Both the position numbers and the translations under genes were made by a program. Below, piece after piece: positions 6,181 to 30,795 of a stretch of DNA of 33,470 nucleotides; the first letter of the stretch is position 1; every line of letters begins with the position of its first letter. The stretch is from a virus (taxonomy: Duplodnaviria > Caudoviricetes), in IMG/VR virus record IMGVR_UViG_3300011412_000014, positions 1-33,470 of that record. One strand, given 5' to 3'. The notes under the pieces were generated by a model that was given only the letters and a program-made list of their open reading frames with translations, searched no databases and had not been told where the DNA came from.

Positions 6181-6735
6181 ATGTTTGTGGATACTTTACT
6201 GGCAAAGGGATTGAATGGCGGCACTGTGCCGGTGCGGATAGACCCCGAGGATTACGAGTGGGCGTCGAAGCATGGCTGGTATCTCAAATCCGGATACCCG
6301 TGTCGATACGTCCCGGTCACAAGGCGGGGGGCTGGGGACTGGACGGAGTACTTCTTGCACCGCGAGATTATGGGGCACCCGGAGGGAAGCCGGAAGGTTC
6401 ACGTCCACCACATTGATGGGGACATCCTCAACTGCCGCCGGTCTAATCTGGTTATCCTATCAGCGAGGGAGCATTACCATGCACATGACCGCACGGAGGT
6501 TGTTAAGCAGTGCGTTTACAACGCGCCCGCGCGGGCCGCGAGTGGTTATAAGGGGGTCTGCCGGCACGAGAAGTCACAGAAGTGGGTGGTCCAGTTTGCT
6601 GTGGACGGTCGGAACCGGACCATCTACGCTACCTCCGATAGTGCGGAGGACGCTGCCGTGGTCTACGACGCGGCCGTGATTGCCTACCGGCCGAAGGGCT
6701 CGTATACCAACTTGATAGAGTGGGAGGAAGAATGA
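6181..6735 (+). CDS. HNH homing endonuclease with AP2-like C-terminal domain
   Basis: LHREIMG..VHHIDGDILNCRRSNL; SGYKGV...KW...AAVVYDAA; start may be GTG 6187. Confidence 0.85.
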   Translation: MFVDTLLAKGLNGGTVPVRIDPEDYEWASKHGWYLKSGYPCRYVPVTRRGAGDWTEYFLHREIMGHPEGSRKVHVHHIDGDILNCRRSNLVILSAREHYHAHDRTEVVKQCVYNAPARAASGYKGVCRHEKSQKWVVQFAVDGRNRTIYATSDSAEDAAVVYDAAVIAYRPKGSYTNLIEWEEE

Positions 6736-8583
6736 CCATCCTCCAGGGTGACGCGCCGGCGATGCTCCGCACTCTGCCGGATGAGTGTGTCCACATGGTA
6801 GTCACGAGCCCGCCGTCAAACCCCGGCGCGGTTGAGTTCTTTACAACGCAGCCGGAGTGCGTCACAGCGGGCGATGTATTCGTCGGAGAGACATGTCACT
6901 GGGACCATTCGCACGGTGCCGTATTTGTTCGGGAAGTTCTTCTCACCGATGACTTTGGTCTTGTGTTGAAACCGGGTGGACTGAAGGGCGCGAAGCTCGA
7001 GTGTTTTCTCTGCCGATGCCCGCTTGACGCGCAGGTACGGCAGGACCGCCAGAATGGCTTTCTCGGCCAACAGGTCACTCGCCTGGTAGCAGTAGAGCGG
7101 GCGTCCATTCTTACAGTTGGGTTTCTCCCGGTAGTAGTTGCCACCCATCGTATCAGCGAGAAACCGGATGGCGGCTTCATCGACCATTCGGACTTGAATG
7201 CGGGCGTGGTAGCCTGGGGTAGCGCAGTCTTTTCGCACGGTGCTTTTCTTGATGCCGATGTAAGCCTCTCCATCCAGTAGCCCGGCGAGGTAGGCGATAT
7301 CTGTTTCTTTAATCAATGTATCCCTCCAAGTAGAGTATACATTACTACTGGTGGATTGTCTTGATATCTGAGAGGGGGTGGTCTTGTGGGGTGTGAAATC
7401 CTCATGGGGGACGCAGTACAGATGCTTCGCACGCTGCCGGATGAAAGCGTGCATTGTGTCGTGACTAGTCCCCCTTACTGACTGGGGCCTGCGGGACTAT
7501 GGAGTGTCGGGCCAACTCGGGCTGGAGGCCACGCCCGAGGAGCACATCCTGCGGTTGGTCGAGGTGTTTGCCGAGGTTCACCGGGTCTTGCGCTCGGATG
7601 GCACCCTCTGGCTGAACTACGGGGACTGCTATGCAACCGGGGCAGGTAAGGTCGGTGAACATCCTGGCGGTGGTGAGCAGGGAGAGCGGTGGAAGGGGTA
7701 CCGGGGCACGCGGGACGGCGCGCCCAAACACGCCGCTGGTGCGATGGGGCCGATGACCCAACCGAACCGGATGCCGCAGAAGGGGCTGAAGCCAAAGGAC
7801 CTGTGTATGATGCCGCACCGGGTCGCTCTCGCCCTTCAGGCGTGGGGCTGGTGGGTCCGCTCGGACATCGTGTGGCACAAACCGGCGCCGATGCCCGAAA
7901 GCGTGACCGACCGCCCTACCCGCAGCCACGAGTATGTCTTCCTGCTAACGAAAGCAGAGCGCTACTACTACGATGCCCAGGCTATCGCTGAGCCTTCCGT
8001 AGCGGGTCACGGAATTGGGAATGGCTATAAGAGACCTTCCCTGTTGTCCTACGCCGACAAGAATGGGGCCAGGGGAAATGATACTCCGTGGCAGCCCGGA
8101 GGCACCAGGAACCGCCGAACAGTGTGGACGATACCCACCCGCGCCTATAGCGGCGCTCATTTTGCGGTGATGCCTGTCGCACTGGTGGAGCCGTGCCTTC
8201 TTGCGGGCACCAGCGCCCACGGCGCCTGCCGTGCCTGTGGCGCTCCGTTTACCCGGGTGGTGGAGAAGACAAGTGAGCAGCGGCAATCTGAATGGAATGG
8301 CAATGATCGCAAGAATGGCTGTCTTGCTGGGGGTGGTCACAAAGGACGAACGGGGCAATGGTTCGGTGAGGTAACGACCACCGGGTGGAAACAGGGGTGT
8401 GAATGTTGGCCGTGCGACCCCGCCCCGTGCGTGGTCCTGGATATTTTTTCCGGCAGCGGCACCGTCGGTGAAGTGGCGCTCCAGCACGGGCGGGACGCCA
8501 TCCTGATTGAGCTGAAGCCGGAGTACTGTACTCTCATCCGAAAGCGCCTGTCACGGGTGCAGCCGAAGCTGCTAGGGACTTGA
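6732..8583 (+). CDS. DNA methyltransferase (N4-C/N6-A, beta class), interrupted at the SPPY motif by a 664-bp insert (6817-7480)
   Basis: 5' part MTILQGDA..LPDECVHMVVTSPP plus T(6816) joins AC(7481) to give YWGLRDYG; body has DIVWHKP, HFAVMP and VLDIFSGSGT motifs. Confidence 0.85.
6816..7316 (-). CDS. LAGLIDADG homing endonuclease, antisense within the methyltransferase
   Basis: IAYLAGLLDGEAYIGI motif; LPYLRVKR; TTG start after GGAGG; AAGACA-N17-TATACT promoter upstream. Confidence 0.85.
   Translation of the reverse strand: MIKETDIAYLAGLLDGEAYIGIKKSTVRKDCATPGYHARIQVRMVDEAAIRFLADTMGGNYYREKPNCKNGRPLYCYQASDLLAEKAILAVLPYLRVKRASAEKTLELRALQSTRFQHKTKVIGEKNFPNKYGTVRMVPVTCLSDEYIARCDALRLRCKELNRAGV
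7386..7481 (+). other. recoded duplicate of the methyltransferase 5' end carried by the insert
   Basis: GTG-started MGCEILMGDAVQMLRTLPDESVHCVVTSPPY* with its own RBS-like GAGGGGGT. Confidence 0.85.
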
Positions 8584-8594
8584 GGGAGGGCGAG

Positions 8595-8969
8595 ATGGTC
8601 GAGACGATGCAAAACGAGGTGGCGGGGGTGCGGATGTGGGTGGAGAACCGCCTGCCCATCCCTCCCTGCTGCCCCGTCTCGACCAATCCCCGTCCCGGTA
8701 GCACGCTCACCTTGCGCTACCGGGCTCCCAACCGGGTGCTGGAGGTCTACTCGCTCAAGCGATATGTCGATGAGTTCATCGGCGGTCACGCGGACGGCAC
8801 CAGGAATATGGAGGCGATGATCCGGAAGATCGCCCAGACGGCAGCCGATGCGCTCGGCGTCCCGGTGCGGGCGGTTGCCGACCTATACCTGCTGCCCGCC
8901 CAGGAACTGCGGCTGGTCTGCTCTGCGAGGCCAGGGAGGCCAAATGAACCCGAGAAAAAACACGATTGA
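8595..8969 (+). CDS. QueF-like T-fold protein (7-deazaguanine pathway)
   Basis: CCPVSTNP and VLEVYSLKRYVDEF motifs; ~125 aa; near a DpdA-like gene. Confidence 0.7.
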   Translation: MVETMQNEVAGVRMWVENRLPIPPCCPVSTNPRPGSTLTLRYRAPNRVLEVYSLKRYVDEFIGGHADGTRNMEAMIRKIAQTAADALGVPVRAVADLYLLPAQELRLVCSARPGRPNEPEKKHD

Positions 8970-9540
8970 CGATGTTCTGAAACGGCTGGTGATTTGCGAG
9001 CCGTCTACGATGCCTACGGGTTGTTGGGAATGGCCGGGGGCCAGGGCGAACGGATATGGGCGGGTCGGATTTGGCGGAAAGTGCGCTGTTGTGCATCGAC
9101 TGGTCTACGTGCATTTTGTCGGCCCGGTGCCGGACGGATTGGAGCTCGACCATCTCTGTCGTAATCGGTGCTGCGCTAACTTTGAGCATTTGGAGGCTGT
9201 TACCGGCAGAATGAACAAGCTTCGCGGTGTAAGCCCCTCCGCCCAGTGTGCCAGGAAGACTCATTGCAGTCGTGGACACGAGTTCAGTCCCGAGAATACT
9301 CGGGTGACGCCGCTTGGGAAGCGGTCTTGCCGGAAGTGCCATGTCATCCACAACACGGCGAACAGAAAGCGCAAGTGGAAACCGCCGCCTCCCCGGCAGC
9401 CCAAGACACACTGCCCGCATGGGCACGAACTGTCTGGAGATAATCTCATCAACGACGTGGTTGGTGGGCATCCGGCGCGGCGGTGCCGGACGTGCCGAAG
9501 GGAACAAGCTCGTCGTTCCGAAGCCAGGAGGCAATCGTGA
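8944..9540 (+). CDS. HNH homing endonuclease with C-terminal zinc-binding repeats
   Basis: GCWEWPG..GYG..HRLVY..LDHLCRNRCCANFEHLEAVT; two KTHC..GH..N..R.C..C repeats. Confidence 0.85.
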   Translation: MNPRKNTIDDVLKRLVICEPSTMPTGCWEWPGARANGYGRVGFGGKCAVVHRLVYVHFVGPVPDGLELDHLCRNRCCANFEHLEAVTGRMNKLRGVSPSAQCARKTHCSRGHEFSPENTRVTPLGKRSCRKCHVIHNTANRKRKWKPPPPRQPKTHCPHGHELSGDNLINDVVGGHPARRCRTCRREQARRSEARRQS

Positions 9541-10303
9541 CCTTTTTTTTGGCACCCACCAGGCGGACTGGCTGGCAAAAGTGACTGTCCCGCTGTTCGT
9601 CTCCCGGCGCCGGCTGATGGACCGGAAGACGCTGCCCAGAGCCACCTGTGACTGGTCGCTTGACAGTGGTGGCTTCTCCGAGCTCTCGCTTCACGGCGGC
9701 TGGAGCATCACCCCGAAGGAGTACGTGGCCGAGGTCAGGCGCTACCGGGAGGAGATTGGTCGATTGCTCTGGATGCCCACCATGGACTGGATGTGCGAGC
9801 CGCACATGACCGAAAGGACAGGGCTCTGTGTGGAAAGCCACCAGCGCCGCACGACCGAGAGCTACCTCACCCTGCGGGAGATGGCTCCCGACCTGCCGTG
9901 GGTGCCTGTCCTGCAGGGGTGGGAAGCGGACGACTACCTCCGCCACCGGCAGCAGTATGCGGATGTGGGCGTGGACCTGGAAGCTCTTCCGCTCGTGGGT
10001 CTGGGCAGCGTCTGCCGCAGGCAGCACACACTGGAAGCAGAAAGGATTGTCAGAAGCCTGAAGGGCCTGAAGCTCCACGGGTTCGGCGTGAAGCTGACCG
10101 GACTGGAGCGGTTCTCGGACGCATTGACCAGCGCGGACTCTCTGGCCTGGAGTATCCACGCTAGGAACCGCAAGCCGATGCTGCCCGGCTGCACGCACCG
10201 GAGCTGCTCCAGTTGCCGCCTCTGGGCACTGAAATGGCGCGAGAGTGTGGTAGCCAGGGTTCGGACGGCAGACAAGACGCCAAGACAGTTGGCGCTCTGG
10301 TGA
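9537..10303 (+). CDS. DpdA/TGT-like deazaguanine DNA modification protein; start out of frame at a T8 tract
   Basis: LDSGGFSEL, DWMCEP, PVLQGW, VGLGSVCRRQ, LHGFGVK and SADSLAWS motifs; AGGAGG+GTG at 9537 needs one more T to join the ORF. Confidence 0.75.
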
Positions 10304-10316
10304 CAGGGAGACTTGA

Positions 10317-10679
10317 ATGACCACCAAAGAGGTTCTAATCGAAGCAAGGGAGTGGCTGGACGCGAACGGCTGGTGCCAGGACGCCAACGCCAGGACGGCG
10401 GACCGGATGCCGTGCATGCCGACCAGCGAGGCGGTGGCTTTCTGCTGCGCCGTGGGCGTGCTGACCCACCTGCTCGCAAAGCGCGGCTCTCACACCTGGA
10501 CGATGAAAGACGCCCGCCCGCTGAAGCAACTGGCCTGCGCGCTCCGAGCGGGAGGTCAGACGGATACGGAAGGGTTTGGCGATATGGACCAGGTGCAGCG
10601 GTGGAACGACGCCCCCCACCGCAAGAAAGCCGAGGTGCTGGACCTGTTCGACCGGGCGATTGCCCTCTGCTTCCAATGA
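10317..10679 (+). CDS. hypothetical phage protein (GWCQ..FC..G..WND..R..EVL..FDRAI family)
   Basis: GGGAG RBS; recognisable conserved pattern. Confidence 0.7.
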   Translation: MTTKEVLIEAREWLDANGWCQDANARTADRMPCMPTSEAVAFCCAVGVLTHLLAKRGSHTWTMKDARPLKQLACALRAGGQTDTEGFGDMDQVQRWNDAPHRKKAEVLDLFDRAIALCFQ

Positions 10680-10984
10680 TGGAGCTCACCGAGAACTTAC
10701 TCCGGGAGACGCTCGCTTTTCTTGCTGCCTACGGGAAGTCTCCGGCTGATGTCCGCTGGGTAGGGCGAGAGGACGAGGAAGGAAGCTGGGAAGCCTTCGC
10801 CGCGCTCGCCGACCGGGAATACGATCCCGGCTTCGGCGGCGCCGAGGTCCTCCAGGACCTCGTGGTGGTCGGAGATGACTGGTGGCTGGAGCGGGAAGAA
10901 TATGACGGCAGCGAGTGGTGGGAGTTCAAACGAAAGCCCACGAAGCCGGGGGGAGGTCCGCTTACGGACCTGTTCTGCAAATAA
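10676..10984 (+). CDS. conserved phage hypothetical protein
   Basis: YDPGFGGAEV..DLVVVGDDWWLEREEYDGSEWWEF; ATGA overlap with upstream gene. Confidence 0.75.
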   Translation: MMELTENLLRETLAFLAAYGKSPADVRWVGREDEEGSWEAFAALADREYDPGFGGAEVLQDLVVVGDDWWLEREEYDGSEWWEFKRKPTKPGGGPLTDLFCK

Positions 10985-11151
10985 TGAGCGAGAAATGGAT
11001 CGCGATCCACCACATGATAGTGGGCCTCCTGTTCATCTTGCTCCAGTATCTGCCGCCGGTAAAAGGGACTGATTGTGTCTATGCCTGGATTGGCTGGGTC
11101 TTCGTGGTGATCGGCATCCTGCTTTACGCGCTGGACAGGGAGAGAGAATGA
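10984..11151 (+). CDS. small membrane protein (2 TM)
   Basis: TAATG coupling; two hydrophobic stretches. Confidence 0.6.
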   Translation: MSEKWIAIHHMIVGLLFILLQYLPPVKGTDCVYAWIGWVFVVIGILLYALDRERE

Positions 11152-11321
11152 CAATCACGATTACCAGCCACGCCAACGGCTGGACCGTCACCAGCATTGG
11201 GGAAAATGGCTGGGAGAGGAAGCGTCTGGTCTACGAGATGGAGAGTATCTCCGACTTGAAGCACGATCTGCTTGATGCGATCGATGAAATGGCGAAAGAG
11301 ATCAGCAAAGGGAACGGATGA
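11148..11321 (+). CDS. hypothetical protein
   Basis: ATGA coupling; GGGAG RBS. Confidence 0.6.
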   Translation: MTITITSHANGWTVTSIGENGWERKRLVYEMESISDLKHDLLDAIDEMAKEISKGNG

Positions 11322-11524
11322 CCGCCTGCCCGCACAACTACTACCGCGAGGTGGAAAGCTGCGCCATCTGCGAAGCTGAAGAAGAACGCGACGAGGCCAG
11401 GAAGGCAGCCCGGGCGATTTTGAGGGACCTGGATTATGCCATCTGGCCTGGCAGATCGAACTGGATGGAGAAATACCCCTGGCTGATTGAAAAGGAAACA
11501 GGAGACGAAGAATGTGCGGATTGA
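11318..11524 (+). CDS. hypothetical protein
   Basis: ATGA coupling; CPH..CAIC followed by a coiled coil. Confidence 0.6.
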   Translation: MTACPHNYYREVESCAICEAEEERDEARKAARAILRDLDYAIWPGRSNWMEKYPWLIEKETGDEECAD

Positions 11525-11784
11525 AGATTAGCCTCTTGCCGATCTGTCGGCAGATGGCGGACCTGGAGTTCAAGATGGAACAGGCGCTCGCCCAGATGAG
11601 CGACACCTCCATCCGTTACGAGCGCTCCCTGATCGTGGCTCGCCAGGACCAGCGCTCCCTGGCGATCATGGACAGCTTTGACCGGGTGAGGAACTGCCTG
11701 CCGCAGTCCGAGGCGCAGACCAACGACTATGACCTGGCCCAGCTAGGAGCGGGTACCCCCCGAAGGGAGGGTGGAGATGAGTGA
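11512..11784 (+). CDS. hypothetical protein
   Basis: AGGAG RBS; operon packing. Confidence 0.5.
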   Translation: MCGLKISLLPICRQMADLEFKMEQALAQMSDTSIRYERSLIVARQDQRSLAIMDSFDRVRNCLPQSEAQTNDYDLAQLGAGTPRREGGDE

Positions 11785-11974
11785 GGACCGCCTGACCGAG
11801 CTGGAGCGCCGGATGGCTGACCTGGAAGAGAATGCTAACCCGATGGCCGTCTGCCGCCACTGCGGCCGGCTCGCGGTCAAGAAGGGCCTGATGGGCGGCA
11901 AGTGCCGGCACTGCGGAAAACGGGCGGGAGAGACCAGCAAAAAGGAGAGGGATACGAATGCCGAAGGGCGATAA
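11777..11974 (+). CDS. small zinc-ribbon protein
   Basis: two CRHCG motifs; GGAGG RBS. Confidence 0.6.
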   Translation: MSEDRLTELERRMADLEENANPMAVCRHCGRLAVKKGLMGGKCRHCGKRAGETSKKERDTNAEGR

Positions 11975-12272
11975 GCAAGCGACGGAGTTGGAACAGGCAG
12001 TAGCGGCGCTGAAGGAACTGGACCAGTGGAACGCGGACGACCTGAAGCTCAATCCGGGCCTTGTCTCCACCCGCGTGAAAGGGTTCGTCATCCAGGTGCT
12101 GCACAATCCGGGCGGCGCGATTACGCTGCACGTCCACGAGAATAGGGACCTCCTGCGCTGGTACCGCCGCGCGAAGGCGCTGGTGAAGCTGGTCCCCGGC
12201 AAGCCGATGGTGGATGCGATGGATGAGACGAGGCGCTCCCCCGAGGCCCTCTCCCGAAAAGAGGTGGCATAG
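11958..12272 (+). CDS. hypothetical protein
   Basis: GAGG RBS; last gene of the operon. Confidence 0.65.
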   Translation: MPKGDKQATELEQAVAALKELDQWNADDLKLNPGLVSTRVKGFVIQVLHNPGGAITLHVHENRDLLRWYRRAKALVKLVPGKPMVDAMDETRRSPEALSRKEVA

Positions 12273-12327
12273 TACTGTACCGCGCATGCGCCCGCGCCCG
12301 CGCGAGGGCTGCCTGCGCCGCGAGTTG

Positions 12328-12336
12328 TGGTATAAT
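12328..12336 (+). promoter_or_regulatory. extended -10 promoter for the ncRNA unit
   Basis: TGG-TATAAT in an intergenic region. Confidence 0.65.
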
Positions 12337-12468
12337 GTATCCACGCTAGAATAATTTCGGGTGGCGATATGCACTAGAGAGGTAATGTCGTTACCCACAG
12401 AGGTGGATACTGGTCGCCACATCCAAGCTAGGTCGCACCCAGCACACCAGTGCGGTAGAAGCAGTAGA

Positions 12469-12541
12469 TCGGCGGTGGCCTAATGGCAAGGCGAAGGAGC
12501 GACGGCTCCCAGGATTGCGCGTTCGAGTCGCGTCCGCCGAT
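12469..12541 (+). ncRNA. tRNA-like RNA with no canonical anticodon loop
   Basis: 7-bp acceptor TCGGCGG/CCGCCGA; D arm GCCT-AATGGCA-AGGC; T arm GCGCG-TTCGAGT-CGCGT; middle arm GGAGC-GACG-GCTCC has a 4-nt loop; no encoded CCA. Confidence 0.75.
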
Positions 12542-12583
12542 TGTCCGGGTCCGGTCCTTTAAGCTCCCATGGTTTCCATAGCC

Positions 12584-12617
12584 ACAGCGAGGCGCCCCAA
12601 GCACCTCGCTGTTTTTT
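12584..12617 (+). terminator. Rho-independent terminator
   Basis: ACAGCGAGG..CCTCGCTG followed by T6. Confidence 0.75.
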
Positions 12618-12681
12618 CGCCTCCCTCCGCTAGTTGCGTTACATCCCTCTGTGGTGCTACACTGCATCAGGAGGAACTCCA

Positions 12682-12957
12682 GTGGCAGCAGACGGCAAGA
12701 TGTCGAAGGAAGAGGTAAACAGGCTAGGCGGAAACGCGCGCGTGGCCCGGATGAGTGAGGACGAACTGCGCGCCATGGCCCGGAAAGGCGGCACCGCCAC
12801 GTTTGCCCGCTACGGGAAAGACCACTACCGGGAGCTTGGCCGAAAGGGCGGTAACGAGACGAAGCGCCGGGGCAGGGTCAGTTATCAGTCGATCGGCAGG
12901 CTGGGCGGGAGGGCGCTTACCGCCCTTGCGCCGAAACGAGATGAGGGCGTGCTCTGA
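12682..12957 (+). CDS. KGG-repeat (general stress protein-like) small protein
   Basis: RKGG repeats (MARKGG, ELGRKGG, IGRLGG); AGGAGG before GTG. Confidence 0.75.
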   Translation: MAADGKMSKEEVNRLGGNARVARMSEDELRAMARKGGTATFARYGKDHYRELGRKGGNETKRRGRVSYQSIGRLGGRALTALAPKRDEGVL

Positions 12958-13373: not shown

Positions 13374-13388
13374 CAGGCGAGCTAACTT

Positions 13389-14246
13389 ATGGCCTTCAAG
13401 TCGTCGCCTAGACCCACTCCAAGTACTCAGCAATCTCCCGCGCTCAGGCGCTTAATTGGCGACCCCGTGGTCCCCACGCCGGAGGTGCCGGAGAGCCCCT
13501 ACGACCGGATCGCCATCCTCCGGACGCGCTTGCGCCAGATTGTGAACCCCGACCGGCCCAGAGCGCAAACGGATTTCCGCTACTTCCTCCGCCATTGCTA
13601 TACGAAGGATGAAAGTAGGGCCGGCAAGGTTGCCCCGTTCCCCGACTGGCCGTTCCTGGACGAACTGTGCGATCACCTGATAACGGAGCGCCTCCTGTTC
13701 ATCGAGAAGGCCCGCCGCGTGATGGCCTCCTGGACCGTGTGCGCGTTCGATCTCTGGCTGATCGCGGGCGGGCAGGACCCCCGGTGGACACACCAGGAAA
13801 TTGATCTGTCCACGGGACAGTCGAGGGTGGTCCAAACCCTGATGTCCAGCACTGAGAACAGGCAGGTTGTCATTGTGGCCCGCAAAATGGAGGACCTGAG
13901 CGGATCAGCGTGGTATCTGTCGCAAAGAGTACAATTTATCTACGAAGAGTTTGAGCGTCGCGGGTTCAGAGAGCAGTTCTGGCCGGACTTTCCCAGGATT
14001 GATTTCTCGTTTGCCAGGGCAAGAGCCACCAATGGAGGGCAAATCGACTGCGTCCCACAGGGGAAAGATAGCAGCAGAGGGCCTGGAGCGACGGTTGTGC
14101 ACTTCGAGGAGGTCGCCTTTGCAAACCAGGTAAAGGAGACGATGGAGGGAACCTTACCTGTTTTACAAGGAGGCGGCCACTGCATAGCGATCACGACAGC
14201 CTCGGCCTCCTCGACCTGGTGTGTCAATTTGGTCAAAGGGCCTTAG
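13389..14246 (+). CDS. terL: terminase large subunit, N-terminal ATPase part
   Basis: IEKARRVMASW (Walker A-like), RG..ATVVHFEEVAF (Walker B), ITTAS (motif III). Confidence 0.8.
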   Translation: MAFKSSPRPTPSTQQSPALRRLIGDPVVPTPEVPESPYDRIAILRTRLRQIVNPDRPRAQTDFRYFLRHCYTKDESRAGKVAPFPDWPFLDELCDHLITERLLFIEKARRVMASWTVCAFDLWLIAGGQDPRWTHQEIDLSTGQSRVVQTLMSSTENRQVVIVARKMEDLSGSAWYLSQRVQFIYEEFERRGFREQFWPDFPRIDFSFARARATNGGQIDCVPQGKDSSRGPGATVVHFEEVAFANQVKETMEGTLPVLQGGGHCIAITTASASSTWCVNLVKGP

Positions 14247-14907
14247 TCTTTTCTCGGGGTCGCTTGAACCATTTCCCTCTGGGGACTGGCGGGGTAGTGA
14301 GCGCGTCTTCCAGGCTCCAACCTCTGGATAGTCGCCGCATTATCCCCGTGGGGTTGATGCCGATTTCGGCTCCCCACTGACTGAGATTTTGGGTTCGCCC
14401 ATTCAGGGTAAACTTGCGGTTGTAGTCAGGTCGGTTGTTGCTTTGCTCCAGCGGGGTGGCCCAGCGGCAGTTCTCCGGGCAATAGTGGGATTTGCCTCCG
14501 GCTATTCGGTCTATGCTGTGGCTTGGAGACGGGCAGGCTCCCATATCGTGAAGGAAGACCTCGAAGTTATCCCACTCGGGGCAGACACGGACGCCCGCAC
14601 CGCCATAGCTGACGAAGTCGGAGTTGTTCGGGTTGTTACATCGGTTTCGCATGTCTGTCCAGCGACGATATTCCGGGGTTTCGGTCTTTCCGTGGATTGC
14701 GTTGGCATGCCGACTGCATGTGGCGCACGATTGAGATACACCGCTCAATATTCGATGAAGCTCAACGATGTCAATTGAACCGCACGTGCAGGCCACTATG
14801 ACAAATCTTCGTCTCTTTCCGGAAGGGGGAGGTGCTGCAGCGAGGACGGTGCGCTTGCCAAAGGTTTGGCCTACAGGAATTTCGGGGAGTTTTGCCGAAC
14901 TTGCCAT
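14233..14907 (-). CDS. HNH-like homing endonuclease, antisense between the terminase halves
   Basis: CTCG, YRRWTDMRNRCNNPN..YGG.GVRVCPEW..F..DMG..SIDRI..YCPENCRWAT; AAGGAGG RBS. Confidence 0.85.
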   Translation of the reverse strand: MASSAKLPEIPVGQTFGKRTVLAAAPPPSGKRRRFVIVACTCGSIDIVELHRILSGVSQSCATCSRHANAIHGKTETPEYRRWTDMRNRCNNPNNSDFVSYGGAGVRVCPEWDNFEVFLHDMGACPSPSHSIDRIAGGKSHYCPENCRWATPLEQSNNRPDYNRKFTLNGRTQNLSQWGAEIGINPTGIMRRLSRGWSLEDALTTPPVPRGKWFKRPREKTKAL

Positions 14908-14992
14908 TGTTCTCGCGCCTCCTTTGCGCGTGGGCCAAGGTCCGGGCGGCTGTCACCGCGCCGGGCCAATTCTATAAGTAGATTGCTCCAAA

Positions 14993-15979
14993 GTGGTAGA
15001 AACTCCTCCAAATTCGGAACTGGAAGAGCGCAAACCTTCCTCTCCAATCTTGCGCCTCACCCGGAAAAAATCCGGGTGGTCTGTGTTGACAATTCCCTGG
15101 ACCGTGGTGCCCAACTATAATTATGAGGCAGCCTGCCAGGGGATGTCGCCTGAAGCGATCCGAATGGAATTGGAGATAGACTGGACAGCTTCCCGTGGCC
15201 TGAAGGTATACCCGGAGTTCAGCCGGGACAAGCACGTTGCCCTGGATAAGATCGAGGCGGATGTCGAAAGGCCGTTCTACATTGGCTGGGACTGGGCGAC
15301 TTGTCCTTCGGCTGTCATCACTCAAACGAACGCGTACGGCCAGTGGCTAATCCTGGATGCGGTCACAACAGGCGAGGATGAATCCAGAGAGGTGTATGAG
15401 TTCGGGATGCGCGTGGCGGACTTCCTGACCCAGAACTATGCGCTTCCAAACGGCATCGGGTTGGAGGATCTGCGAATGATCCATGTGGGCGACCCTGCCG
15501 GACAGGCGCGGCTGCCGAGGACGGGAGAGCGGCCGCAGGACACGCGCAGTTATTTCGAGATCATTCGCCGGGGGCTCGACGTGTTCGTGGGCGAGGATAT
15601 GCACGGTCGCCCGATCATTGAACGAAAGAAGGGGCTGGGCTGGAAGATCATCGCCGGTCAGGTGGGTATCCCGATCCGCCTGGAAAGTGTGCGCGCTCGG
15701 CTGACCACGAGCTTGAAGGACGGTGTTCCCGCACTGGTCGTGTCTCCGCAGGTGACATCAGTGATCGACGCATTTTCAGGCGGATACCATTATCACGCCT
15801 ACAACGATGGGTCGTACTCTCGCGATCCGGAGAAGAATTGGGAAGCGGACGTAATGGACGCTCTGGGCTACATCGCGACCCGCCTCTATCCTACGAGCAA
15901 GGTGCGAAAGACCGAAGAAGAGGACGAAGATTACGACCGGGGGCCGAGGGTGACCTCGGTTGCCGGCAGGCGTTACTAA
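14993..15979 (+). CDS. terL: terminase large subunit, C-terminal lid + RNase H-like nuclease part
   Basis: ELEIDW..G.KVYPEF..H, YIGWDW, GDPAG and DVMDALGY motifs. Confidence 0.8.
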   Translation: MVETPPNSELEERKPSSPILRLTRKKSGWSVLTIPWTVVPNYNYEAACQGMSPEAIRMELEIDWTASRGLKVYPEFSRDKHVALDKIEADVERPFYIGWDWATCPSAVITQTNAYGQWLILDAVTTGEDESREVYEFGMRVADFLTQNYALPNGIGLEDLRMIHVGDPAGQARLPRTGERPQDTRSYFEIIRRGLDVFVGEDMHGRPIIERKKGLGWKIIAGQVGIPIRLESVRARLTTSLKDGVPALVVSPQVTSVIDAFSGGYHYHAYNDGSYSRDPEKNWEADVMDALGYIATRLYPTSKVRKTEEEDEDYDRGPRVTSVAGRRY

Positions 15980-23945: not shown

Positions 23946-24701
23946 ATGGCAAGGCGTGGATTTGACTCAGGCCCGGCGAACTACGGGCCGGTGCGCTCGA
24001 AGTTTCGCAGTCCTACCCAGTCGCGCGAGTTAGAGGATGAGAGCCTCAACTGGAACCCTCGCGCCCGCGTCGATCAGATGTGGGATTTCATCGGGATCTA
24101 TGACAGCACGGCGACATTAGGAGAGGGACTGACCTCGGCGGTGGCGGGAACCACGCCCACCGTGGCCCAGGTGGCCAACTCGATCAACGGGCTGGTGGCG
24201 CTTACTCTGACCTCCACCTCGGAAGCGCAGAGCGCCCGGATCGACACGGGCGATGTGCTGAACTTCGACCCCACCAAGCAGCCGATGATCCAGGCGTATA
24301 TCAAGACGTTCGGCACCGCGTTCACCTCCGTGCAGAACCTGGTGTTCGGGTTCGCCTCCGCCTACAACGCCACGCTGGACAGTGTAGCATCCAACATGTG
24401 GTTCAAGCTGGCCGGCTCGAACGTGCTGCGGGTAGAGGGCGACGACGGGACCACGGACACCGATGACCAGACGACGGGGAGAACGCTTGCGGTCAGCACC
24501 TGGTATCTCCTGACCGTGTTTGCCCGCACCCTGAACCGGGTGGAGTTCTGGCTGGACGACGACATGGTGGGAACGGTCAGCGTTCCGCTGTTGACTGCCA
24601 CGCAGGTCCTGCAGCCCGCGCTCATCCTCCAGAAGGCTTCAGGAACCACGGTCCCGGCGGTCCAGGTAGACTATATCAGAGCCTCCCAGAATCGTTGGTG
24701 A
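23946..24701 (+). CDS. virion structural protein, beta-rich (lectin-like)
   Basis: follows the major capsid gene; T/S/G-rich; VDYIRASQNR C-terminus. Confidence 0.65.
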   Translation: MARRGFDSGPANYGPVRSKFRSPTQSRELEDESLNWNPRARVDQMWDFIGIYDSTATLGEGLTSAVAGTTPTVAQVANSINGLVALTLTSTSEAQSARIDTGDVLNFDPTKQPMIQAYIKTFGTAFTSVQNLVFGFASAYNATLDSVASNMWFKLAGSNVLRVEGDDGTTDTDDQTTGRTLAVSTWYLLTVFARTLNRVEFWLDDDMVGTVSVPLLTATQVLQPALILQKASGTTVPAVQVDYIRASQNRW

Positions 24702-24707
24702 AATAGA

Positions 24708-24914
24708 ATGAGAGCCAGGCGAAGACCCGGTAGGCCCTGCCGCATTCCTGGGCGTTGGTTTCGGCTGGGGCCGCTGGTGGAGGATCAGGTGACCGGCTGG
24801 AAGGTGCCGATCCGCTTCTGTGTCGAGCAGCGCGGGGGCCTGGTGGATGCGAACGAGCGCCGGGGCGGCTCCAGAGATGAACCAAACGATGCCCAGACCC
24901 GGGGAGGCGGCTAG
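24708..24914 (+). CDS. hypothetical protein
   Basis: fills the gap between flanking genes. Confidence 0.45.
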   Translation: MRARRRPGRPCRIPGRWFRLGPLVEDQVTGWKVPIRFCVEQRGGLVDANERRGGSRDEPNDAQTRGGG

Positions 24915-25427
24915 ATGTACGCTAACAAGAATGTTGTGCGCTATGACCTGGCGACCGGCGCGGCGACGCAGACCTTGAACCTGGAGATCCCGATGGATCT
25001 CTCGCACGCCCGCGCCTTGACTTTGGAAGTAATCATCACCGAGGCGATCACAGACGCCTCGGATACCCTGGACATCCGCCTGCAGGACACCTATGACGGG
25101 GTGACCTGGAACACCCGCATCCGGATGTTGCAGATGATCGGCACGCTGTCGCCATCCGCCACGGCGCCGGAGTATCAGCGCTCCGTGGTGAGTGCTGATG
25201 TATTACTCACCACGCCGGAAGAAAATTACGAATGCACCGGAAGCGTAGGCGCCACGGACCTGACCGCCGGGACGGTCAGGAATGGGCCGTTTGCCCCGAT
25301 GCGGAGAACCTCCGGGGTGAACGGCAGGCAGCCAGCGCACAGAATTCAAGTCATCTCGACAGAAGGTGGCGCATCCAACGCTAACTGGGCTGGCCGCATC
25401 TTTCTCTCGGCGCTCACGCAGTACTAG
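24915..25427 (+). CDS. virion structural protein (putative)
   Basis: GGAGG RBS; LDIRLQDTYDGVTW motif. Confidence 0.65.
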   Translation: MYANKNVVRYDLATGAATQTLNLEIPMDLSHARALTLEVIITEAITDASDTLDIRLQDTYDGVTWNTRIRMLQMIGTLSPSATAPEYQRSVVSADVLLTTPEENYECTGSVGATDLTAGTVRNGPFAPMRRTSGVNGRQPAHRIQVISTEGGASNANWAGRIFLSALTQY

Positions 25428-25435
25428 GAGATCTG

Positions 25436-25864
25436 ATGCCTACGCCTAGCGTTCCCAGTCCTGATTACGATCTCACGGTAGCCATCTCAGGCGCATCCAC
25501 CGGCACCTCGATTGGCTCGGTGGTGATCTCGAACGGGTCCTTGCAGGTCGGGGCCAGCACGCTTGAGGTCAAGCAGGCACAGATCAATATCTCGGCCTCG
25601 GGTGACAACACGGTAGTGGCGGCGGTGACCGCCAAGAAGATCCGGGTCGTCGGGGTAATGTTCATCTGCGCGGCCGATGTGACGGTGCAGGTGAAGAGCC
25701 TGGCCACTTCCAAGATCGCGGCGATGAGCTACCACGCGAACGGAGGTGTGGCGCTCTGGTGGCCGGAAGGCTTCTGGGTAGAGACGGCATCCGGCGAGGC
25801 GCTGGTGTTCGCGCTCGGTGGCAACGTGCAGGTTTCGGGGTCGCTCAACTATGTGGAGGTCTGA
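25436..25864 (+). CDS. virion structural protein (putative)
   Basis: AGGAG RBS; SGDNTVVAAV..KKIRV..ETASGEAL pattern. Confidence 0.65.
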   Translation: MPTPSVPSPDYDLTVAISGASTGTSIGSVVISNGSLQVGASTLEVKQAQINISASGDNTVVAAVTAKKIRVVGVMFICAADVTVQVKSLATSKIAAMSYHANGGVALWWPEGFWVETASGEALVFALGGNVQVSGSLNYVEV

Positions 25865-25875
25865 GTGGAGGAGCA

Positions 25876-26067
25876 ATGAAATCGCCTGGTGAGATGATTG
25901 TCGATAACGGCGCCATGCCACTGGTCCGGTTAACGGGGGAGCAGAAGCGCGAAGTTCTCAATCAGCGATTACTTCAGCAAGAGATGCTGATGGAGGAATA
26001 CCGGTTGAATTACGAGGCGGCAAAAGCTGCCTGGAACGCGATCCGCATTCAGGTTGAGGAAACGTAG
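25876..26067 (+). CDS. small coiled-coil protein
   Basis: GGAGGAG RBS, ATG at 25876. Confidence 0.6.
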   Translation: MKSPGEMIVDNGAMPLVRLTGEQKREVLNQRLLQQEMLMEEYRLNYEAAKAAWNAIRIQVEET

Positions 26068-26081
26068 GGGGCTAGAAACCA

Positions 26082-27752
26082 ATTCCACTCGGCGTCTTCA
26101 TCCCATCTCAGCTAAACGATCTTTCAGTGGACGTGGCTCTTGGCACGCCGGCCAGGGGCGCGATTATGTACCGCGGCGCCACGAAGTGGAACGCGCTTGC
26201 GGCGGGAACCTCAGGCGAGGCGTTGACGACCCAGGGCGCGGGCGCCGATCCGATCTGGGGATCGCCTACCGCTGACATCTCTCCGGCTGTAATCCTCCTG
26301 CCCACCAGTTCCGCGAGGAACGTCATCCAGCCATCCGGCGCGGCCGTCATCCCGCTCACCGTCAAGGGGTTTGCCAGTCAGTCGGCAACCCTGCAGGAGT
26401 GGCAGGATAGTGCGGCCAACGTGCTTGGCTCCATCAGTGCGAGCGGACTGTCCACGAACACCGTCCTGGACGCGGCGACCAGTACCAGTTCTGACGTGCA
26501 ACTGCTCGGCCACAATAGCAGCGGCACTCCGGCTGCCGGGTTCGCCTCCCGCACAGGGTGGCGGCTCCACAGCACGACCACCGTCAACACGGAAGCGGCC
26601 GAGCTAGGGGTTAGCTGGGTAGTAGCGACCCACGCCAGCCGCACGGCCAGGGCAGTCCTCTCGGTCTACGATACGGCAGCCCGCGAGGTCCTCCGTGGGC
26701 AGGCGTCGGGCACGGCGCCGATGATCGGGTTTCTCGGCGCTTCTGCCGTGGTTCGACCGGCATCGACCACCGATCTGCGGCAGGCGCTGATTGATCTCGG
26801 GCTGTATACCACCGGCGGCGCGAGCCCGCTGAACCTCAACGGTGGCGCGTTTGTCACCAGCGGGTCTGTTTCCAGCACGGGCGCGGGGGCAAGCAGCGAG
26901 CGGTTCGGGGCTGGGGCGCTGGCTGGGGGGATAAGCTCAACCTCTGTCGGTAATGCTGCGTCGGCGTCGACCCAGCAATGCACCGCTATCGGAGCAACCG
27001 CCACTGCGTCCAACACAGCGTGCACGGCGCTTGGCTTTGGCGCTGTCGCTTCAGCAGTAGGGTCTACAGCGTTAGGTTTTAGTGCTAACTCAGCATTTGG
27101 TTCGTCAATCGCAATTGGGACAAACTCGGTCGCCACAGCCATCGAGCAATGTATTATCGGTGGGACAACAGCATCGGGCCGAATTGCAACTGTGTATATC
27201 GGCAACGGCGTTGTGAACGCAGCGCCAAGCGCCGTCACGATCAACGGGACCGGTGGCAGCGGAACAGACATTGCGGGCGCATCGCTTACCATTGCGGGCG
27301 GGCGCGGCACCGGCTCGGCGGTGGGCGGGGCGATCATCTTCCAGAGCACGGCCGCGGGAGCGTCGGCAACCACTCTTCGCACTCTTGAGGAGAAGTTCCG
27401 GATCTCCAATCTCGGGGTGCTGACCAGCTCGCGAAAGTCCAGCACGCAAGACCGCACCGTGGTGGATATGGAGCCGACTTTTGTCGTCGCGACTGACGCC
27501 AGCCGAACCGGCCGGGCGGTCTGGTGCATCTACGACACGGCAGCCCGCGAGGCAATGCGAATGGAGGCTTCGGGCAGCGCGCCAATGATCGGGTTCCTCG
27601 GCGCTGCTGCTGTTGCCAGGACAGCAGCATACACGCCGACGAATGTTTCCGCTGATCGTTCCTACGATGCAAACGCGACGACACTAGACGAGGTAGCTGA
27701 TGTGCTCGGCACGCTTATAGCCGACTTGCAGCTCTTCGGGTTCCTGGCGTAA
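26082..27752 (+). CDS. tail fibre/adhesin-like protein with YadA-head-like repeats; probable ATT start
   Basis: repeated (S/T)A(I/L/V)G..A.A units; internal ~47-aa duplication; G/A/T/S-rich. Confidence 0.7.
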   Translation: MPLGVFIPSQLNDLSVDVALGTPARGAIMYRGATKWNALAAGTSGEALTTQGAGADPIWGSPTADISPAVILLPTSSARNVIQPSGAAVIPLTVKGFASQSATLQEWQDSAANVLGSISASGLSTNTVLDAATSTSSDVQLLGHNSSGTPAAGFASRTGWRLHSTTTVNTEAAELGVSWVVATHASRTARAVLSVYDTAAREVLRGQASGTAPMIGFLGASAVVRPASTTDLRQALIDLGLYTTGGASPLNLNGGAFVTSGSVSSTGAGASSERFGAGALAGGISSTSVGNAASASTQQCTAIGATATASNTACTALGFGAVASAVGSTALGFSANSAFGSSIAIGTNSVATAIEQCIIGGTTASGRIATVYIGNGVVNAAPSAVTINGTGGSGTDIAGASLTIAGGRGTGSAVGGAIIFQSTAAGASATTLRTLEEKFRISNLGVLTSSRKSSTQDRTVVDMEPTFVVATDASRTGRAVWCIYDTAAREAMRMEASGSAPMIGFLGAAAVARTAAYTPTNVSADRSYDANATTLDEVADVLGTLIADLQLFGFLA

Positions 27753-27762
27753 GGAGGCTGCA

Positions 27763-28050
27763 ATGGCAGTAGAAACTACGGACAAAGCGCTTAATCTCTG
27801 CTCCCGGCTGATGTCGGCGGCAGACCAACTGATGGGCGCGGTGGAGCAACTGGCCGCACTGAAGAATGAGAAGGAGTCATCAGGGCTCGACCTGACAGCG
27901 GCTGCCGTAGAGACGGCGCTTGGCGCGTCGCCAGCACTGAAGCACGCCAGCGGCACGAATTTCAACAACGTCATTACGAGCGGGGCAGCGATCAATGCCT
28001 GGCTGGAAGCGGAGTTTCATGATGATATTATGCAATCTGTCAGACCATAA
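27763..28050 (+). CDS. hypothetical tail-associated protein
   Basis: AAGGAGG RBS; ends DDIMQSVRP. Confidence 0.7.
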   Translation: MAVETTDKALNLCSRLMSAADQLMGAVEQLAALKNEKESSGLDLTAAAVETALGASPALKHASGTNFNNVITSGAAINAWLEAEFHDDIMQSVRP

Positions 28051-28096
28051 GTAAAGACATTTTGCAGATTGGCATCACATTCGCTATGATGGAGGT

Positions 28097-28648
28097 ATGA
28101 AAACATGCACATCATGCGGGATCGAAAAGGATAGTTCGGAGTATTACCGGCACGCTACAACAACTGACAAGCTGACTACTCAATGCAAGGGCTGCATCTC
28201 ATTGGCCGGGAAAAAGGCAAGGGCCGTCGAGTCTGTTGAGGACCGTGCAAAACGACTGGCGAGATTGAAAGAATGGGCAGAGCGAAACCCAGAGAAATCG
28301 AAGGCGATCAAGGAGCGTTGGGCAAAAAAGAACCGGGAGCGACACAACCGGCAGGGGCGGGAGTATTATTACCGACACCTGGAGCGGGTGCAATCTTTCT
28401 ACAGGAACCGTTACCATCAGACGAAAGCAGCGGGCGGGGAATACACTCAAGAGGAATGGCAATCGGTCTGTGCCACAGCGAAGGGGTGCTGCCTTCGCTG
28501 TGGAGAAGTGAAACCGCTGACAGTTGATCATGTTATCCCTATCCGAAAAGGCGGGAGCAATGACATCGGGAACATCCAGCCTCTGTGTGGAACTTGCAAT
28601 CGAAGCAAGGGTGACAAGATTATCGATTATCGGGCGCAAGAGGAATGA
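28097..28648 (+). CDS. HNH endonuclease
   Basis: CTSC..CKGC N-terminus; CLRCG..LTVDHVIP..GGSN.IGNIQPLC.TCN.SKG; GGAGG RBS; TTGCAG-N17-TATGAT promoter. Confidence 0.85.
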   Translation: MKTCTSCGIEKDSSEYYRHATTTDKLTTQCKGCISLAGKKARAVESVEDRAKRLARLKEWAERNPEKSKAIKERWAKKNRERHNRQGREYYYRHLERVQSFYRNRYHQTKAAGGEYTQEEWQSVCATAKGCCLRCGEVKPLTVDHVIPIRKGGSNDIGNIQPLCGTCNRSKGDKIIDYRAQEE

Positions 28649-28676
28649 CGATATATTAGATATCGTCCGTCCATAG
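28644..28676 (+). pseudogene. orphan duplicate of the 3' end of gene 27763..28050
   Basis: reads NDDILDIVRP* versus HDDIMQSVRP*. Confidence 0.7.
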
Positions 28677-28783
28677 CTCGCTCCTGACAGCCGGAGGCAG
28701 GTCCAGGTTTTCATAATATGGCATACACACCTCCCCTTTATGGTAAAATATACGAAAGTGTAATCCATAAGAGGAGGGGACAA

Positions 28784-29449
28784 ATGGCTAAAAAGGGGTG
28801 GGCGCCGGTAGTTGGAGATCGGATCGGAATGTTAACGATTACGGAGACCGAGATTAGGCAGCAATATTCCGGGGGGAAGCGTCTGTTTGCGCGGGCGAAG
28901 TGTGATTGCGGTAAAGAGATATTACGCCGCTACGCCAGCTTGCAAGACCCCAGGTATGTGTCTTGTGGCTGCTTTCATAATGAGCAATTAAGGCAGATGG
29001 CTACGCGGCACGGCGATTCTGCGTCTCGTCTTTACTACACATGGAGAACGATGATCGCTCGGTGCCACGATCCGTTACGGAATGAGTTTAAGTGGTATGG
29101 AAAGCGCGGCATCGCCGTATGTCAGGAATGGCGACAAAGCTACGAAGCATTTCGGAGTTGGGCACTGGCAGCCGGGTACTGTGATGGATTAACCATAGAT
29201 CGGATAGATGCAGATCAAGGCTATCTACCACAAAACTGTCGGTGGGTGAGTCGCTCGATCAATTCCGCGAGGCAACGAACGAACAGGCTAATAAACGCAT
29301 TTGGCGAAGAGAAGCACCTGTCTGATTGGGTTCGCGACCAACGCTGTCGCGTCAGTTATGGAGGGTTGCGCAGGCGATTAGATTTGGGTTGGGCGCCTGA
29401 AGATGCGATTGCCACCCTTCCGAGGATATTGCCATCAGCTACACATTAG
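28784..29449 (+). CDS. HNH-like homing endonuclease (same family as 14233..14907)
   Basis: CDCG..SCGC, LYYTWRTMIARC..YGKRGIAVCQEW..TIDRID..GY.PQNCRWV; GAGGAGG RBS. Confidence 0.85.
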   Translation: MAKKGWAPVVGDRIGMLTITETEIRQQYSGGKRLFARAKCDCGKEILRRYASLQDPRYVSCGCFHNEQLRQMATRHGDSASRLYYTWRTMIARCHDPLRNEFKWYGKRGIAVCQEWRQSYEAFRSWALAAGYCDGLTIDRIDADQGYLPQNCRWVSRSINSARQRTNRLINAFGEEKHLSDWVRDQRCRVSYGGLRRRLDLGWAPEDAIATLPRILPSATH

Positions 29450-30078
29450 ACGTAGGGCTATCACTAGGAGCCGGAAACACCGGACTGGCGTTGGAGATGC
29501 AGCTCACGGACACGGCCGGCGCCAATGTGGGGGCGGCTGTGACCACCGGCTTCGTCGAGTTCGGGGCGACGGGCAATTATCTCTTCCATTATACCGGCTG
29601 GCCGGATGGGCACCGGGGCGCCGCCGTGTTTCAGGTAACTCCCGGCGGGGCGATAAAGACCTCGGTAGCGATCAACCCGGAAGAAGCGGAGTATGTTGGG
29701 ACGCGCCTGCCTGCTGCATTGGTCTCCGGTCGGATGGACTCCTCTGTTGGGGCGATGGCCGCCGGAACCGTGACTGCTGCTGCTGTCGCTACCGATGCCA
29801 TTGACGCGGACGCCCTCGCCGCAAATGCCGTGACCGAGATCGCCGCCGGCCTCCTGGCCACTGCGCTCGTGGAATTGGGCGTGGCGAAGCCATCGGCTAC
29901 TCCGACCGTGGCCGAAGCGCTGATGCTCTTCTTTATGTCAATCAGGAACAAGCGCACCGTGGACACGGCGGCTGGAAAGGACACGATCTTCAACGACGCG
30001 GGCACGGCCATCTTCCACCTGCCGGTGACGGACGCGGCGGGGGTGTTCACTTCTGATGAGGCAGTCAGCGGAGCGTAG
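29434..30078 (+). CDS. virion structural protein; probable ATC start
   Basis: GAGGA RBS then ATC AGC TAC ACA TTA in frame with the tracked ORF 29491..30078; A/T/D-rich repeats. Confidence 0.65.
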   Translation: MSYTLDVGLSLGAGNTGLALEMQLTDTAGANVGAAVTTGFVEFGATGNYLFHYTGWPDGHRGAAVFQVTPGGAIKTSVAINPEEAEYVGTRLPAALVSGRMDSSVGAMAAGTVTAAAVATDAIDADALAANAVTEIAAGLLATALVELGVAKPSATPTVAEALMLFFMSIRNKRTVDTAAGKDTIFNDAGTAIFHLPVTDAAGVFTSDEAVSGA

Positions 30079-30087
30079 CCATCGCAA

Positions 30088-30531
30088 TTAGGTCTTGTAG
30101 GAATTCTTCTGGAAGCACTGCCTGGAACAGAACACGCGCTTTAGCCGAGGAAATCGGCGGGGGCGGAAGGTGACACCGCATCCGTCACAAACAACTGGGA
30201 CGATGCGTTCTGTCACTTCAGGTCGGAAGAAGACGGGTTCGTGCTGGAGAAGATGAGAAGCACGCGTATGGAGTTCCAAGTTTTCGATCCGGTTGTCGAG
30301 TTTGTCCCCATTCTTGTGGTGGACGATCTCTCTCTTCTCAAGAAACCGGCCGAGGTGTTCCATCATCACAAGCCGATGTTCGAGAATGTAGCCTTTGGCG
30401 TTGGAGCAAGGATGCTCTTGGAAAAGAACGAGTTTATACCCATGGCTTATGAACCAGCCGCTCCTGTAGGCGTTGGAGGCAGGGCCTTTTTTGCCAAGAA
30501 GATGCATGCCGGTGTTTCCGCGTTTTCCCAT
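30088..30531 (-). CDS. HNH homing endonuclease (antisense)
   Basis: GY...EHP..GYILEHRLVM..HLGR.L...EIVHHKNGDKLDNRIENLEL; C-terminal C..CG..FCSRQC. Confidence 0.85.
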   Translation of the reverse strand: MGKRGNTGMHLLGKKGPASNAYRSGWFISHGYKLVLFQEHPCSNAKGYILEHRLVMMEHLGRFLEKREIVHHKNGDKLDNRIENLELHTRASHLLQHEPVFFRPEVTERIVPVVCDGCGVTFRPRRFPRLKRVFCSRQCFQKNSYKT

Positions 30532-30594
30532 ACCTATATAATGACGCAAAAGGGTGGGTAATGGCAACGAAACAGGATATAGCAGGAACAAAAA

Positions 30595-30795
30595 ACGGCT
30601 ATTGACTCAAGGAATAAACGTGCCAGCGCGATGTGTCACTGGCTCTACGCTCCGCTCCCGGACGCCGACGGAACGATCGACAAGAACGATCGCCGCCAGG
30701 TGGCGTGCATCTACTGCGCCGATGCGACCGAGGACCTGCCGGTCGAGGGCGGCGACGACTTTGCCTATGACCTGCTGCTGTTAGGCGTGGGCTAA
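30595..30795 (+). CDS. small virion-module protein; probable ACG start; not in the ORF track
   Basis: (M)AIDSRNKRASAMCHWLYAPLPDADGTIDKNDRRQVACIY..LLLLGVG*; stop 1 nt before the next ATG. Confidence 0.6.
   Translation, partial: TAIDSRNKRASAMCHWLYAPLPDADGTIDKNDRRQVACIYCADATEDLPVEGGDDFAYDLLLLGVG

Follow-up and report, generated by a model that had tools for sequence, protein, structure and literature searches.

A stop codon and short coding gap beside a homing endonuclease in a phage DNA methyltransferase gene: a likely hairpin-driven translational bypass

The window analyzed here is the whole 33,470-nt stretch of virus record IMGVR_UViG_3300011412_000014, a tailed-phage contig that carries terL in pieces, portal, capsid, N6/N4 DNA methyltransferase (methylase), and dpdA genes as well as seven nuclease genes. 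Our subject is the methylase gene, in which a LAGLIDADG endonuclease gene lies between an orphan 5' methylase stub (N1) and a replacement methylase N-terminus (N2), and in which N2 is separated from the rest of the enzyme by a stop codon and an extra base. An original prediction had described homing endonuclease cassettes at five loci of this phage (cases 1 to 5, the methylase being case 1), each carrying a recoded spare copy of the gene segment it disrupts. All motifs it quoted are present where it placed them, and in all five cases the nuclease stop codon lies at or beside one junction. The features of these loci are listed in Table 1.

Table 1. Features of the methylase locus and of the four other nuclease-bearing loci in the window
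Feature	Positions	Strand	Remarks
N1, orphan 5' stub of N6/N4 DNA methyltransferase, M..VVTSPP	6732..6815	+	no hairpin signal, fold z +0.39
Single-motif LAGLIDADG endonuclease, I-MsoI/I-CreI-like	6816..7316	-	TTG start after GGAGG
N2, replacement N-terminus ending SPPY	7370..7478	+	own Shine-Dalgarno (SD) sequence 7370-7378, GTG start 7386
Predicted 70-nt mRNA hairpin	7404..7475	+	-35.8 kcal/mol, z -3.87
Take-off TAC, stop TGA, 4-nt gap TGAC	7476..7482	+	predicted landing GAC 7480-7482; TGG resumes 7483
Methyltransferase body (PF01555), 366 open codons	7483..8583	+	motif I DIFSGSGT present
terL first piece, ATPase core through TTASA motif	13389..14246	+	last two residues from antisense end of nuclease
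HNH-type endonuclease (phrog_374) splitting terL	14233..14907	-	family match
Nuclease upstream DNA, homologous to L067 intergenic DNA	14957..15021	.	gives GTG and first codons of second terL piece
terL second piece	14993..15979	+	no clear SD before GTG
Conserved 95-aa gene ending in in-frame copy HDDIMQSVRP*	27763..28050	+	homologue comparison
HNH endonuclease (PF01844), case 2	28097..28648	+	sigma70-like promoter match 28061-28090 in front
Orphan C-terminal copy NDDILDIVRP*	28644..28676	+	without the invariant His; folds as 8-bp hairpin
MAYT stub in frame with phrog_374 endonuclease	28718..29449	+	second ATG 28784, its SD in predicted hairpin
Case-3 host gene, replacement start ISYTLDV	29434..30078	+	ATC 7 nt after GAGGA; overlaps nuclease end
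Remnant start ATC GCA ATT, native position	30081..30089	+	position compared with L032
HNH endonuclease (PF13392), case 4	30088..30531	-	domain match
Small host gene xAIDSRNKRAS	30595..30795	+	ACG 7 nt after AGGA; relatives start GTG

N1 and N2 agree at 21/26 amino acids and 53/78 nucleotides (third positions 10/26), and the score of their match is reached by those two copies alone among 66,780 six-frame positions, in line with the earlier rating of case 1 as strong. N2 terminates in TAC TGA C, after which WGLRDY and the rest of the methylase follow in the +1 frame. This arrangement is observed directly: the junction with TGA C is unchanged in the covering contigs of three public sequencing runs (X1, which is maybe the source, X3, and X7), and an assembly error as the cause of the gap was rejected as these contigs show no difference. 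A contig from an RNA run spans positions 8140-8352 only, with the junction outside, and at its small share gives no evidence of expression. A search of the window against Rfam gave no match at gathering score, hence no group I or group II ribozyme core.

The same geometry recurs in related loci from viral and metagenome collections (denoted by L-numbers). A stop-blind scan of viral sequences for inserts of 1-12 nt at PPY^WG-LR-DY yielded 22 loci, some of them duplicates, and in every one an in-frame stop immediately follows TAY (16) or TAY TGG (6), inserts of 1-2 nt occurring in 0/22; intact stretches matching this motif number an estimated ~1,300, and the gap is present in ~2% of matching alleles. 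When metagenome loci were selected by the nuclease (the best 80 of 393 being fetched, 54 of them with a readable junction), 53/54 junctions were interrupted and the stop followed the take-off codon directly in 53/53. By comparison, 0/120 methylase loci selected for an intact junction had a nuclease match or a second N-terminus (75 of these had at least 900 nt upstream), as the original prediction would have it for nuclease-free relatives. Nine of 84 viral nuclease loci were readable, giving five short gaps, one long insert, and three intact junctions; at these three the nucleases are distant, two of them on the 3' side of the gene. A genome scan gave 11 matches, three of which are real methylases with a TGAC gap, all in metagenome-assembled genomes, and eight of which arose by chance. 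Among 50,697 cultured-phage records there were four weak nuclease matches and 247 methylase matches, the latter counted without reading their junctions.

Gap loci and stop-pattern scans were pooled into 81 distinct alleles. The take-off codon is Tyr in 57, Trp in 18, Pro in five, and Phe in one, and the stop is TGA in 56, TAG in 14, and TAA in 11, the stop-pattern part of the pool being biased to Tyr with TGA or TAA. Gap lengths range from 3 to 11 nt and fall in all three frames (14/53/14). Counting wobble, the landing codon matches the take-off codon at 3/3 positions in 19 alleles, 2/3 in 61, and 1/3 in one, and it changes along with the take-off codon (e.g., Phe-Phe in L240). N2 is open in 81/81 alleles and has a start codon in 80/81 and an SD in 65/81 (intact genes: 99/122), and motif I is kept in 25/37 bodies of gap alleles vs 43/68 of intact ones. 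In 50 loci N1 reaches SPP in 19, is shorter in 22, and is weak or absent in nine; since it reaches SPP in only 19/50, N1 is a remnant rather than an exon. N1-N2 identity averages 61% (35% at four-fold sites; 15 loci), and N1 is closest to its own N2 in 15/25 loci by a rank test that is biased, as the stubs were delimited with their own N2. In 24 gap alleles there is no related nuclease or stub within at least 700 nt upstream. Gap alleles are scattered through the family, the nearest neighbor of a gap allele being another one for 41/70, and between nearest alleles the share of synonymous sites that differ is mostly 45-98%. Two loci, L070 and L079, carry a bare in-frame TAG between Tyr and Trp.

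In the window, the predicted stem of N2 ends one base before the TAC codon, and its folding energy was reached by 0/200 synonymous shuffles. Folding stronger than that of synonymous shuffles is observed throughout the family, with a mean z of -2.17 and 46/81 alleles below -2 for gap alleles vs -0.20 and 8/122 for intact ones (p 8e-17). The signal needs the last 12 nt before take-off, and downstream there is no difference between gap and intact alleles. Strong hairpins occur with the nuclease (33/56) as well as without it (12/24), and where N1 and N2 could be paired, N2 folds the more strongly (p 0.01, n = 14). Moreover, the position of the stem depends on the take-off codon. With Tyr it ends at the Pro codons (perfect 6-nt arm in 37/57 vs 0/122 intact alleles), while with Trp the Tyr codon becomes part of it (10/19 vs 1/122); for the Pro class (n = 5) the 6-nt arm test does not separate gap from intact alleles. 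Four main stem registers were found, the window's being common to 10 other alleles. In the Trp class one stem pair is changed on both sides, and pairs not used for class definition are also enriched (0.47-0.73 vs 0.30-0.46). Because the hairpin tracks the take-off codon and exceeds shuffles, the spelling of N2 is shaped at least partly by RNA structure.

Judged by its sequence, the nuclease of the methylase locus is a single-motif LAGLIDADG homing endonuclease of the I-MsoI/I-CreI kind. The alignment of its family (A2) matches the I-MsoI (E 1.8e-10, monomer) and I-CreI profiles, and PF00961 is matched by 5/10 aligned members, the window's own protein not being among them. The latter has Ala beside the catalytic acidic residue, where 9/10 aligned members have Gly. 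Other arrangements were also seen. L077 (and L011 upstream) has a different sense-strand nuclease-like open reading frame (ORF) between N1 and N2, together with an 8-nt gap; as another nuclease-like ORF lies beside the gap in L077, the gap is not tied to LAGLIDADG. In L292, L299, and L251 a sense-oriented LAGLIDADG gene is joined in frame to the methylase stub, and in L001 stub and nuclease abut the last codons of the methylase, the middle of the gene being missing.

We consider it likely that ribosomes hop the gap and its stop with the help of the predicted upstream hairpin, because the stop and extra base stand behind such a hairpin in a layout common to dozens of related genes. The enzyme would then probably still be made although the probable cut site of the nuclease is broken, while the other four loci appear simpler. 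The junction is thus best read as a hairpin-driven translational bypass in miniature, one that likely protects the cut site in the manner of T4 gene 60. The nuclease would cut intact alleles near SPPY^WG, a site that the gap would break, and repair would copy the cassette, leaving the old start (N1) stranded. A ribosome translating N2 would stall on the stop with tRNA-Tyr in its P site; the hairpin would close behind it and push it 4 nt onward, whereupon tRNA-Tyr would re-pair on GAC at two of three positions and decoding would resume at TGG. Subsequent loss of the nuclease would leave gap alleles without one. We also lean, with less assurance, towards a broader view, in which minimal hairpin-driven stop-hops form a widespread class with gaps of 3-11 nt in any frame, including in-frame Trp-stop-Trp, the arrangement of L274 and L292, and Pro-stop-Pro, and with 2-of-3 landings. 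Homing nucleases would thereby occupy an invariant catalytic motif, and the spelling of the spare N-terminus would have been altered so that it forms the stimulator, in at least four registers.

Several observations speak against such a bypass. The window's landing codon GAC mismatches the take-off codon at the first position (2/3 match), and a perfect landing is found in 0/57 Tyr take-off alleles. The window gap is an exact 4-nt repeat, as expected from a mis-repaired staggered cut; of the TAY-TGA-Y alleles (10 of 36 aside), 12 are exact repeats and 24 are unlike one. There is no strong hairpin in 35/81 alleles. In L300 and L302 the same place is occupied by a related nuclease, yet the junction is intact, and L259/L260 and L305, excluded from the 81 alleles as outside the simple rule, have longer inserts (19-20 nt) after SPPY with a stop two codons later. 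Ratios of nonsynonymous to synonymous change (pN/pS) of 0.43 for N2 and 0.32 for the body are weak evidence because pS is near saturation and the divergence may predate the gap, and the p-values overstate independence because alleles share ancestry. Lastly, the phage can probably do without the methylase, in which case a dead allele might simply be carried along.

Alternatively, the gap could be a repair scar that kills methylase and cut site alike, and the cassette a spreading, gene-destroying parasite that takes its intact-looking flanks anew from every host allele it enters. Enzymes of the I-CreI type leave 4-nt overhangs, the exact 4-nt repeat in the window by itself creates TGA, and the scatter and rarity of gap alleles would suit such an origin. 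We nevertheless regard a scar as unlikely, since it leaves unexplained the TAA and TAG stops, the four kinds of take-off codon with matched landings, a hairpin whose position follows the take-off codon, and an N2 that lies inside the cassette and is open in every allele. It is similarly improbable that the stop is a real end, with the enzyme made in two pieces or else through a single-base frameshift or readthrough that adds extra residues. Split phage enzymes beside homing nucleases are documented, as described by Manning and Atkins (bioRxiv 10.1101/2022.08.31.505936), and the two alleles with a bare 3-nt TAG are explicable by readthrough or a TAG-reassigned code. However, the alleles have no common restart codon, the first in-frame ATG, GTG, or TTG occurring anywhere from codon 2 to codon 88; gaps in all three frames are beyond any one frameshift rule.

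Removal of the insert at the RNA level, by splicing of N1 to the body or by a polymerase that skips the gap, seems very improbable. In its favor, joining the last T of the stub to the bases that follow a G would keep the frame in the window, as the U/G rule for group I introns would have it. Against this stand the empty Rfam search, the stubs that are shorter than SPP or weak or absent in 22 and nine of 50 loci, and the 24 gap alleles that lack both stub and related nuclease upstream. The account originally proposed, namely that at each of the five loci a recoded spare terminus is by itself enough to restore the gene and to remove the cut site, now has hardly any probability left. Case 2 fits it fully, cases 1 and 3 do so in anatomy, and the divergence of N1 from N2, greatest at four-fold sites, is what recoding would give. 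Simple restoration nonetheless fails at case 1 with its stop and frameshift, at cases 3 and 4, which have ATC or ACG in place of standard starts, and at case 5 (terL), which is in two pieces and shows no supported duplicate.

The proposed bypass resembles known systems in part. Natural bypass is bench-supported in very few systems, listed as T4 gene 60, phiHau3, and Magnusiomyces mitochondria (PMC10732093). In the T4 MobA element with gene 60, as in the methylase, a free-standing homing nuclease lies inside the gene and the stop comes right after the take-off codon, and in both the bypass outlives the nuclease and the nuclease family is swappable. The MobA insert is described as carrying a homologous replacement, HomR (67-81% DNA identity, clade-specific), compared with 68% for the methylase cassette, which is usually closest to its own stub by the biased rank test. 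The MobA polymorphisms did not block nicking, whereas the bypass insert did (bioRxiv 10.1101/2022.08.31.505936), and the push on the ribosome as the stem closes is discussed as a driving force for gene 60 (bioRxiv 10.1101/2024.12.09.627546). On the other hand, MobA is an HNH nuclease in a topoisomerase gene, while here a LAGLIDADG enzyme sits at a methylase catalytic motif; in the methylase the whole N-terminus is replaced and the gene is not split. The gene 60 gap is ~50 nt with a Gly take-off, in contrast to 3-11 nt with Tyr, Trp, Pro, or Phe and mostly 2-of-3 landings in the bypass predicted here. The idea that the cassette is the MobA element itself (HNH MobA in Topo2L, ~50-nt gap) was rejected, as nuclease, target, and gap length all differ.

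Short gaps have been described elsewhere. In Streptomyces phage phiHau3 the terminase gene has a 10-nt bypass with a proposed 5' stem-loop (PMC10732093), and the byps of Magnusiomyces mitochondria are short with imperfect landings (PMC5009743), both as in the methylase; unlike here, they are triggered by rare or unused sense codons rather than stops, and these sources, as far as consulted, mention no nuclease cassette. The latter, a 2016 review, knew of no natural in-frame stop-hop. Manning and Atkins called the gene 60 cassette unique, and the string 'methyl' is absent from their main text (bioRxiv 10.1101/2022.08.31.505936). A literature search, with thin coverage of subscription journals, turned up no publication on gaps of this type in methylase genes. 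Such a gap would explain how an intron-less nuclease breaks a site that it cannot recode, and phage genes listed as frameshifted pseudogenes may in some cases be functional. Over a single 100-nt stretch the 81 natural alleles differ in take-off, stop, gap length, landing match, and hairpin register, so that the minimal rules for hopping can be tested directly.

The original prediction stood in part. Duplicates are present in cases 1, 2, and 3, which are intron- and intein-free cassettes with a diverged replacement terminus, but case 4 retains a two-codon remnant only and case 5 does not look like a duplicate. The idea itself was already known from the mORF gene hybrids of fungal mitochondria (PMC3630166) and from the MobA HomR (bioRxiv 10.1101/2022.08.31.505936). 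In these mORFs (Allomyces atp6; Glomus atp6, atp9, cox2, and nad3) a nuclease comes with a foreign in-frame terminus and the native one is stranded, as in case 2 and, mirrored, in cases 1 and 3; the layout with the duplicate terminus on the far side of the nuclease ORF is present in cases 1-3. They differ in being mitochondrial and, as described, without a coding gap, while the present cassettes are from a phage and include N-terminal versions (PMC3630166). The five-locus idea is thus of modest interest, and the methylase gap family is the valuable core. DNA of empty alleles was compared for cases 1 and 2 among the first three.

Case 2, earlier rated strong like case 1, is a plain end replacement. 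Its copies share 7/11 residues including the stop and 20/33 nt, a score reached at 2 of 66,870 positions; the match, like that of case 1, goes far beyond chance. L381 has a single end of this gene, whose tail matches the left copy at 19/33 and the right at 17/33, and no close empty relative was found. The orphan copy (28647-28667) is a perfect 8-bp inverted repeat and on the minus strand scored as terminator-like. The case-3 duplicate is real, given that MAYTL opens most homologues and that the copy downstream has ISYTLDV. Of the 20 best non-self homologues listed (P0015-P0034), 13 start with MAYT and P0017 has it at residue 7; the viral relatives did not cover the gene start. The SD of the case-3 nuclease is buried in a predicted hairpin at 28730-28783 (z -2.6). 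In case 4 two codons are shared, a score reached at 543 of 66,918 positions, and the case is backed by position alone, the 11 bases that precede the GTG start in L032 being identical. Relatives of the case-4 gene begin GTG GCN ATH/GTT GAY, whereas ATC opens the left copy and ACG the right one, neither being a standard start. The starts of cases 3 and 4 have likely been replaced, with initiation at ATC or ACG, or they may be weak starts or damaged genes. Both ATC starts are located where ATG would create CATG; CATG, GTAC, CTAG, and TTAA occur at 0.5-0.63 of expectation in the whole window.

For terL (case 5), L067 has an uninterrupted homologue (76% identical) whose CVGLVK matches the left copy, and a nuclease of the case-5 family (45%) at 2143-2890, between terS and terL. 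Window positions 14957-15021, which encode CSKVVETPPNSE, align without gaps to non-coding DNA upstream in L067, with identity at 19/19 and, following these, at 30/46 nt. Compared with this upstream DNA, CSKVVETP matches at 15/24 of its nucleotides and CVNLVKGP at 14/24. Case 5 was therefore rejected as a duplicate, the right copy looking like nuclease-promoter DNA by comparison with one relative, L067, although an older terL origin of this DNA may be envisaged. The 19-nt motif upstream of the L067 nuclease is identical to window positions 14957-14975, its single occurrence in the window. A hop of 760 nt over the insert was likewise rejected, as no hairpin signal was found (z -0.47 and +0.54). 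It is likely that terL functions as two pieces, the break coming directly behind the ATPase coupling motif. Genes in pieces with element-derived ends are also described for MobE in Aeh1 nrdA and MobA in genes 39/60 (bioRxiv 10.1101/2022.08.31.505936), but the ends added to terL are only ~2 and ~9 residues long; another terL gene is spliced (PMC10448857), unlike the one here.

The public runs with the best-matching contigs are labelled freshwater sediment, and the contigs compared were almost all at least 99% alike to the window. Contigs from eight public runs over the window were of the same strain or unrelated and thus uninformative on nuclease-free alleles. At the HNH genes at 6181-6735 and 8944-9540 no duplicate was seen when their ends were read. 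Positions 8580-8969 carry a QueF-like gene. For dpdA (PF23859), the likely GTG start overlaps the stop of the HNH gene (9537-9560) and is out of frame with the gene body; the frame break lies across a run of eight T, on which the X1 and X3 contigs concur, making this run a candidate for slippage or phase variation.

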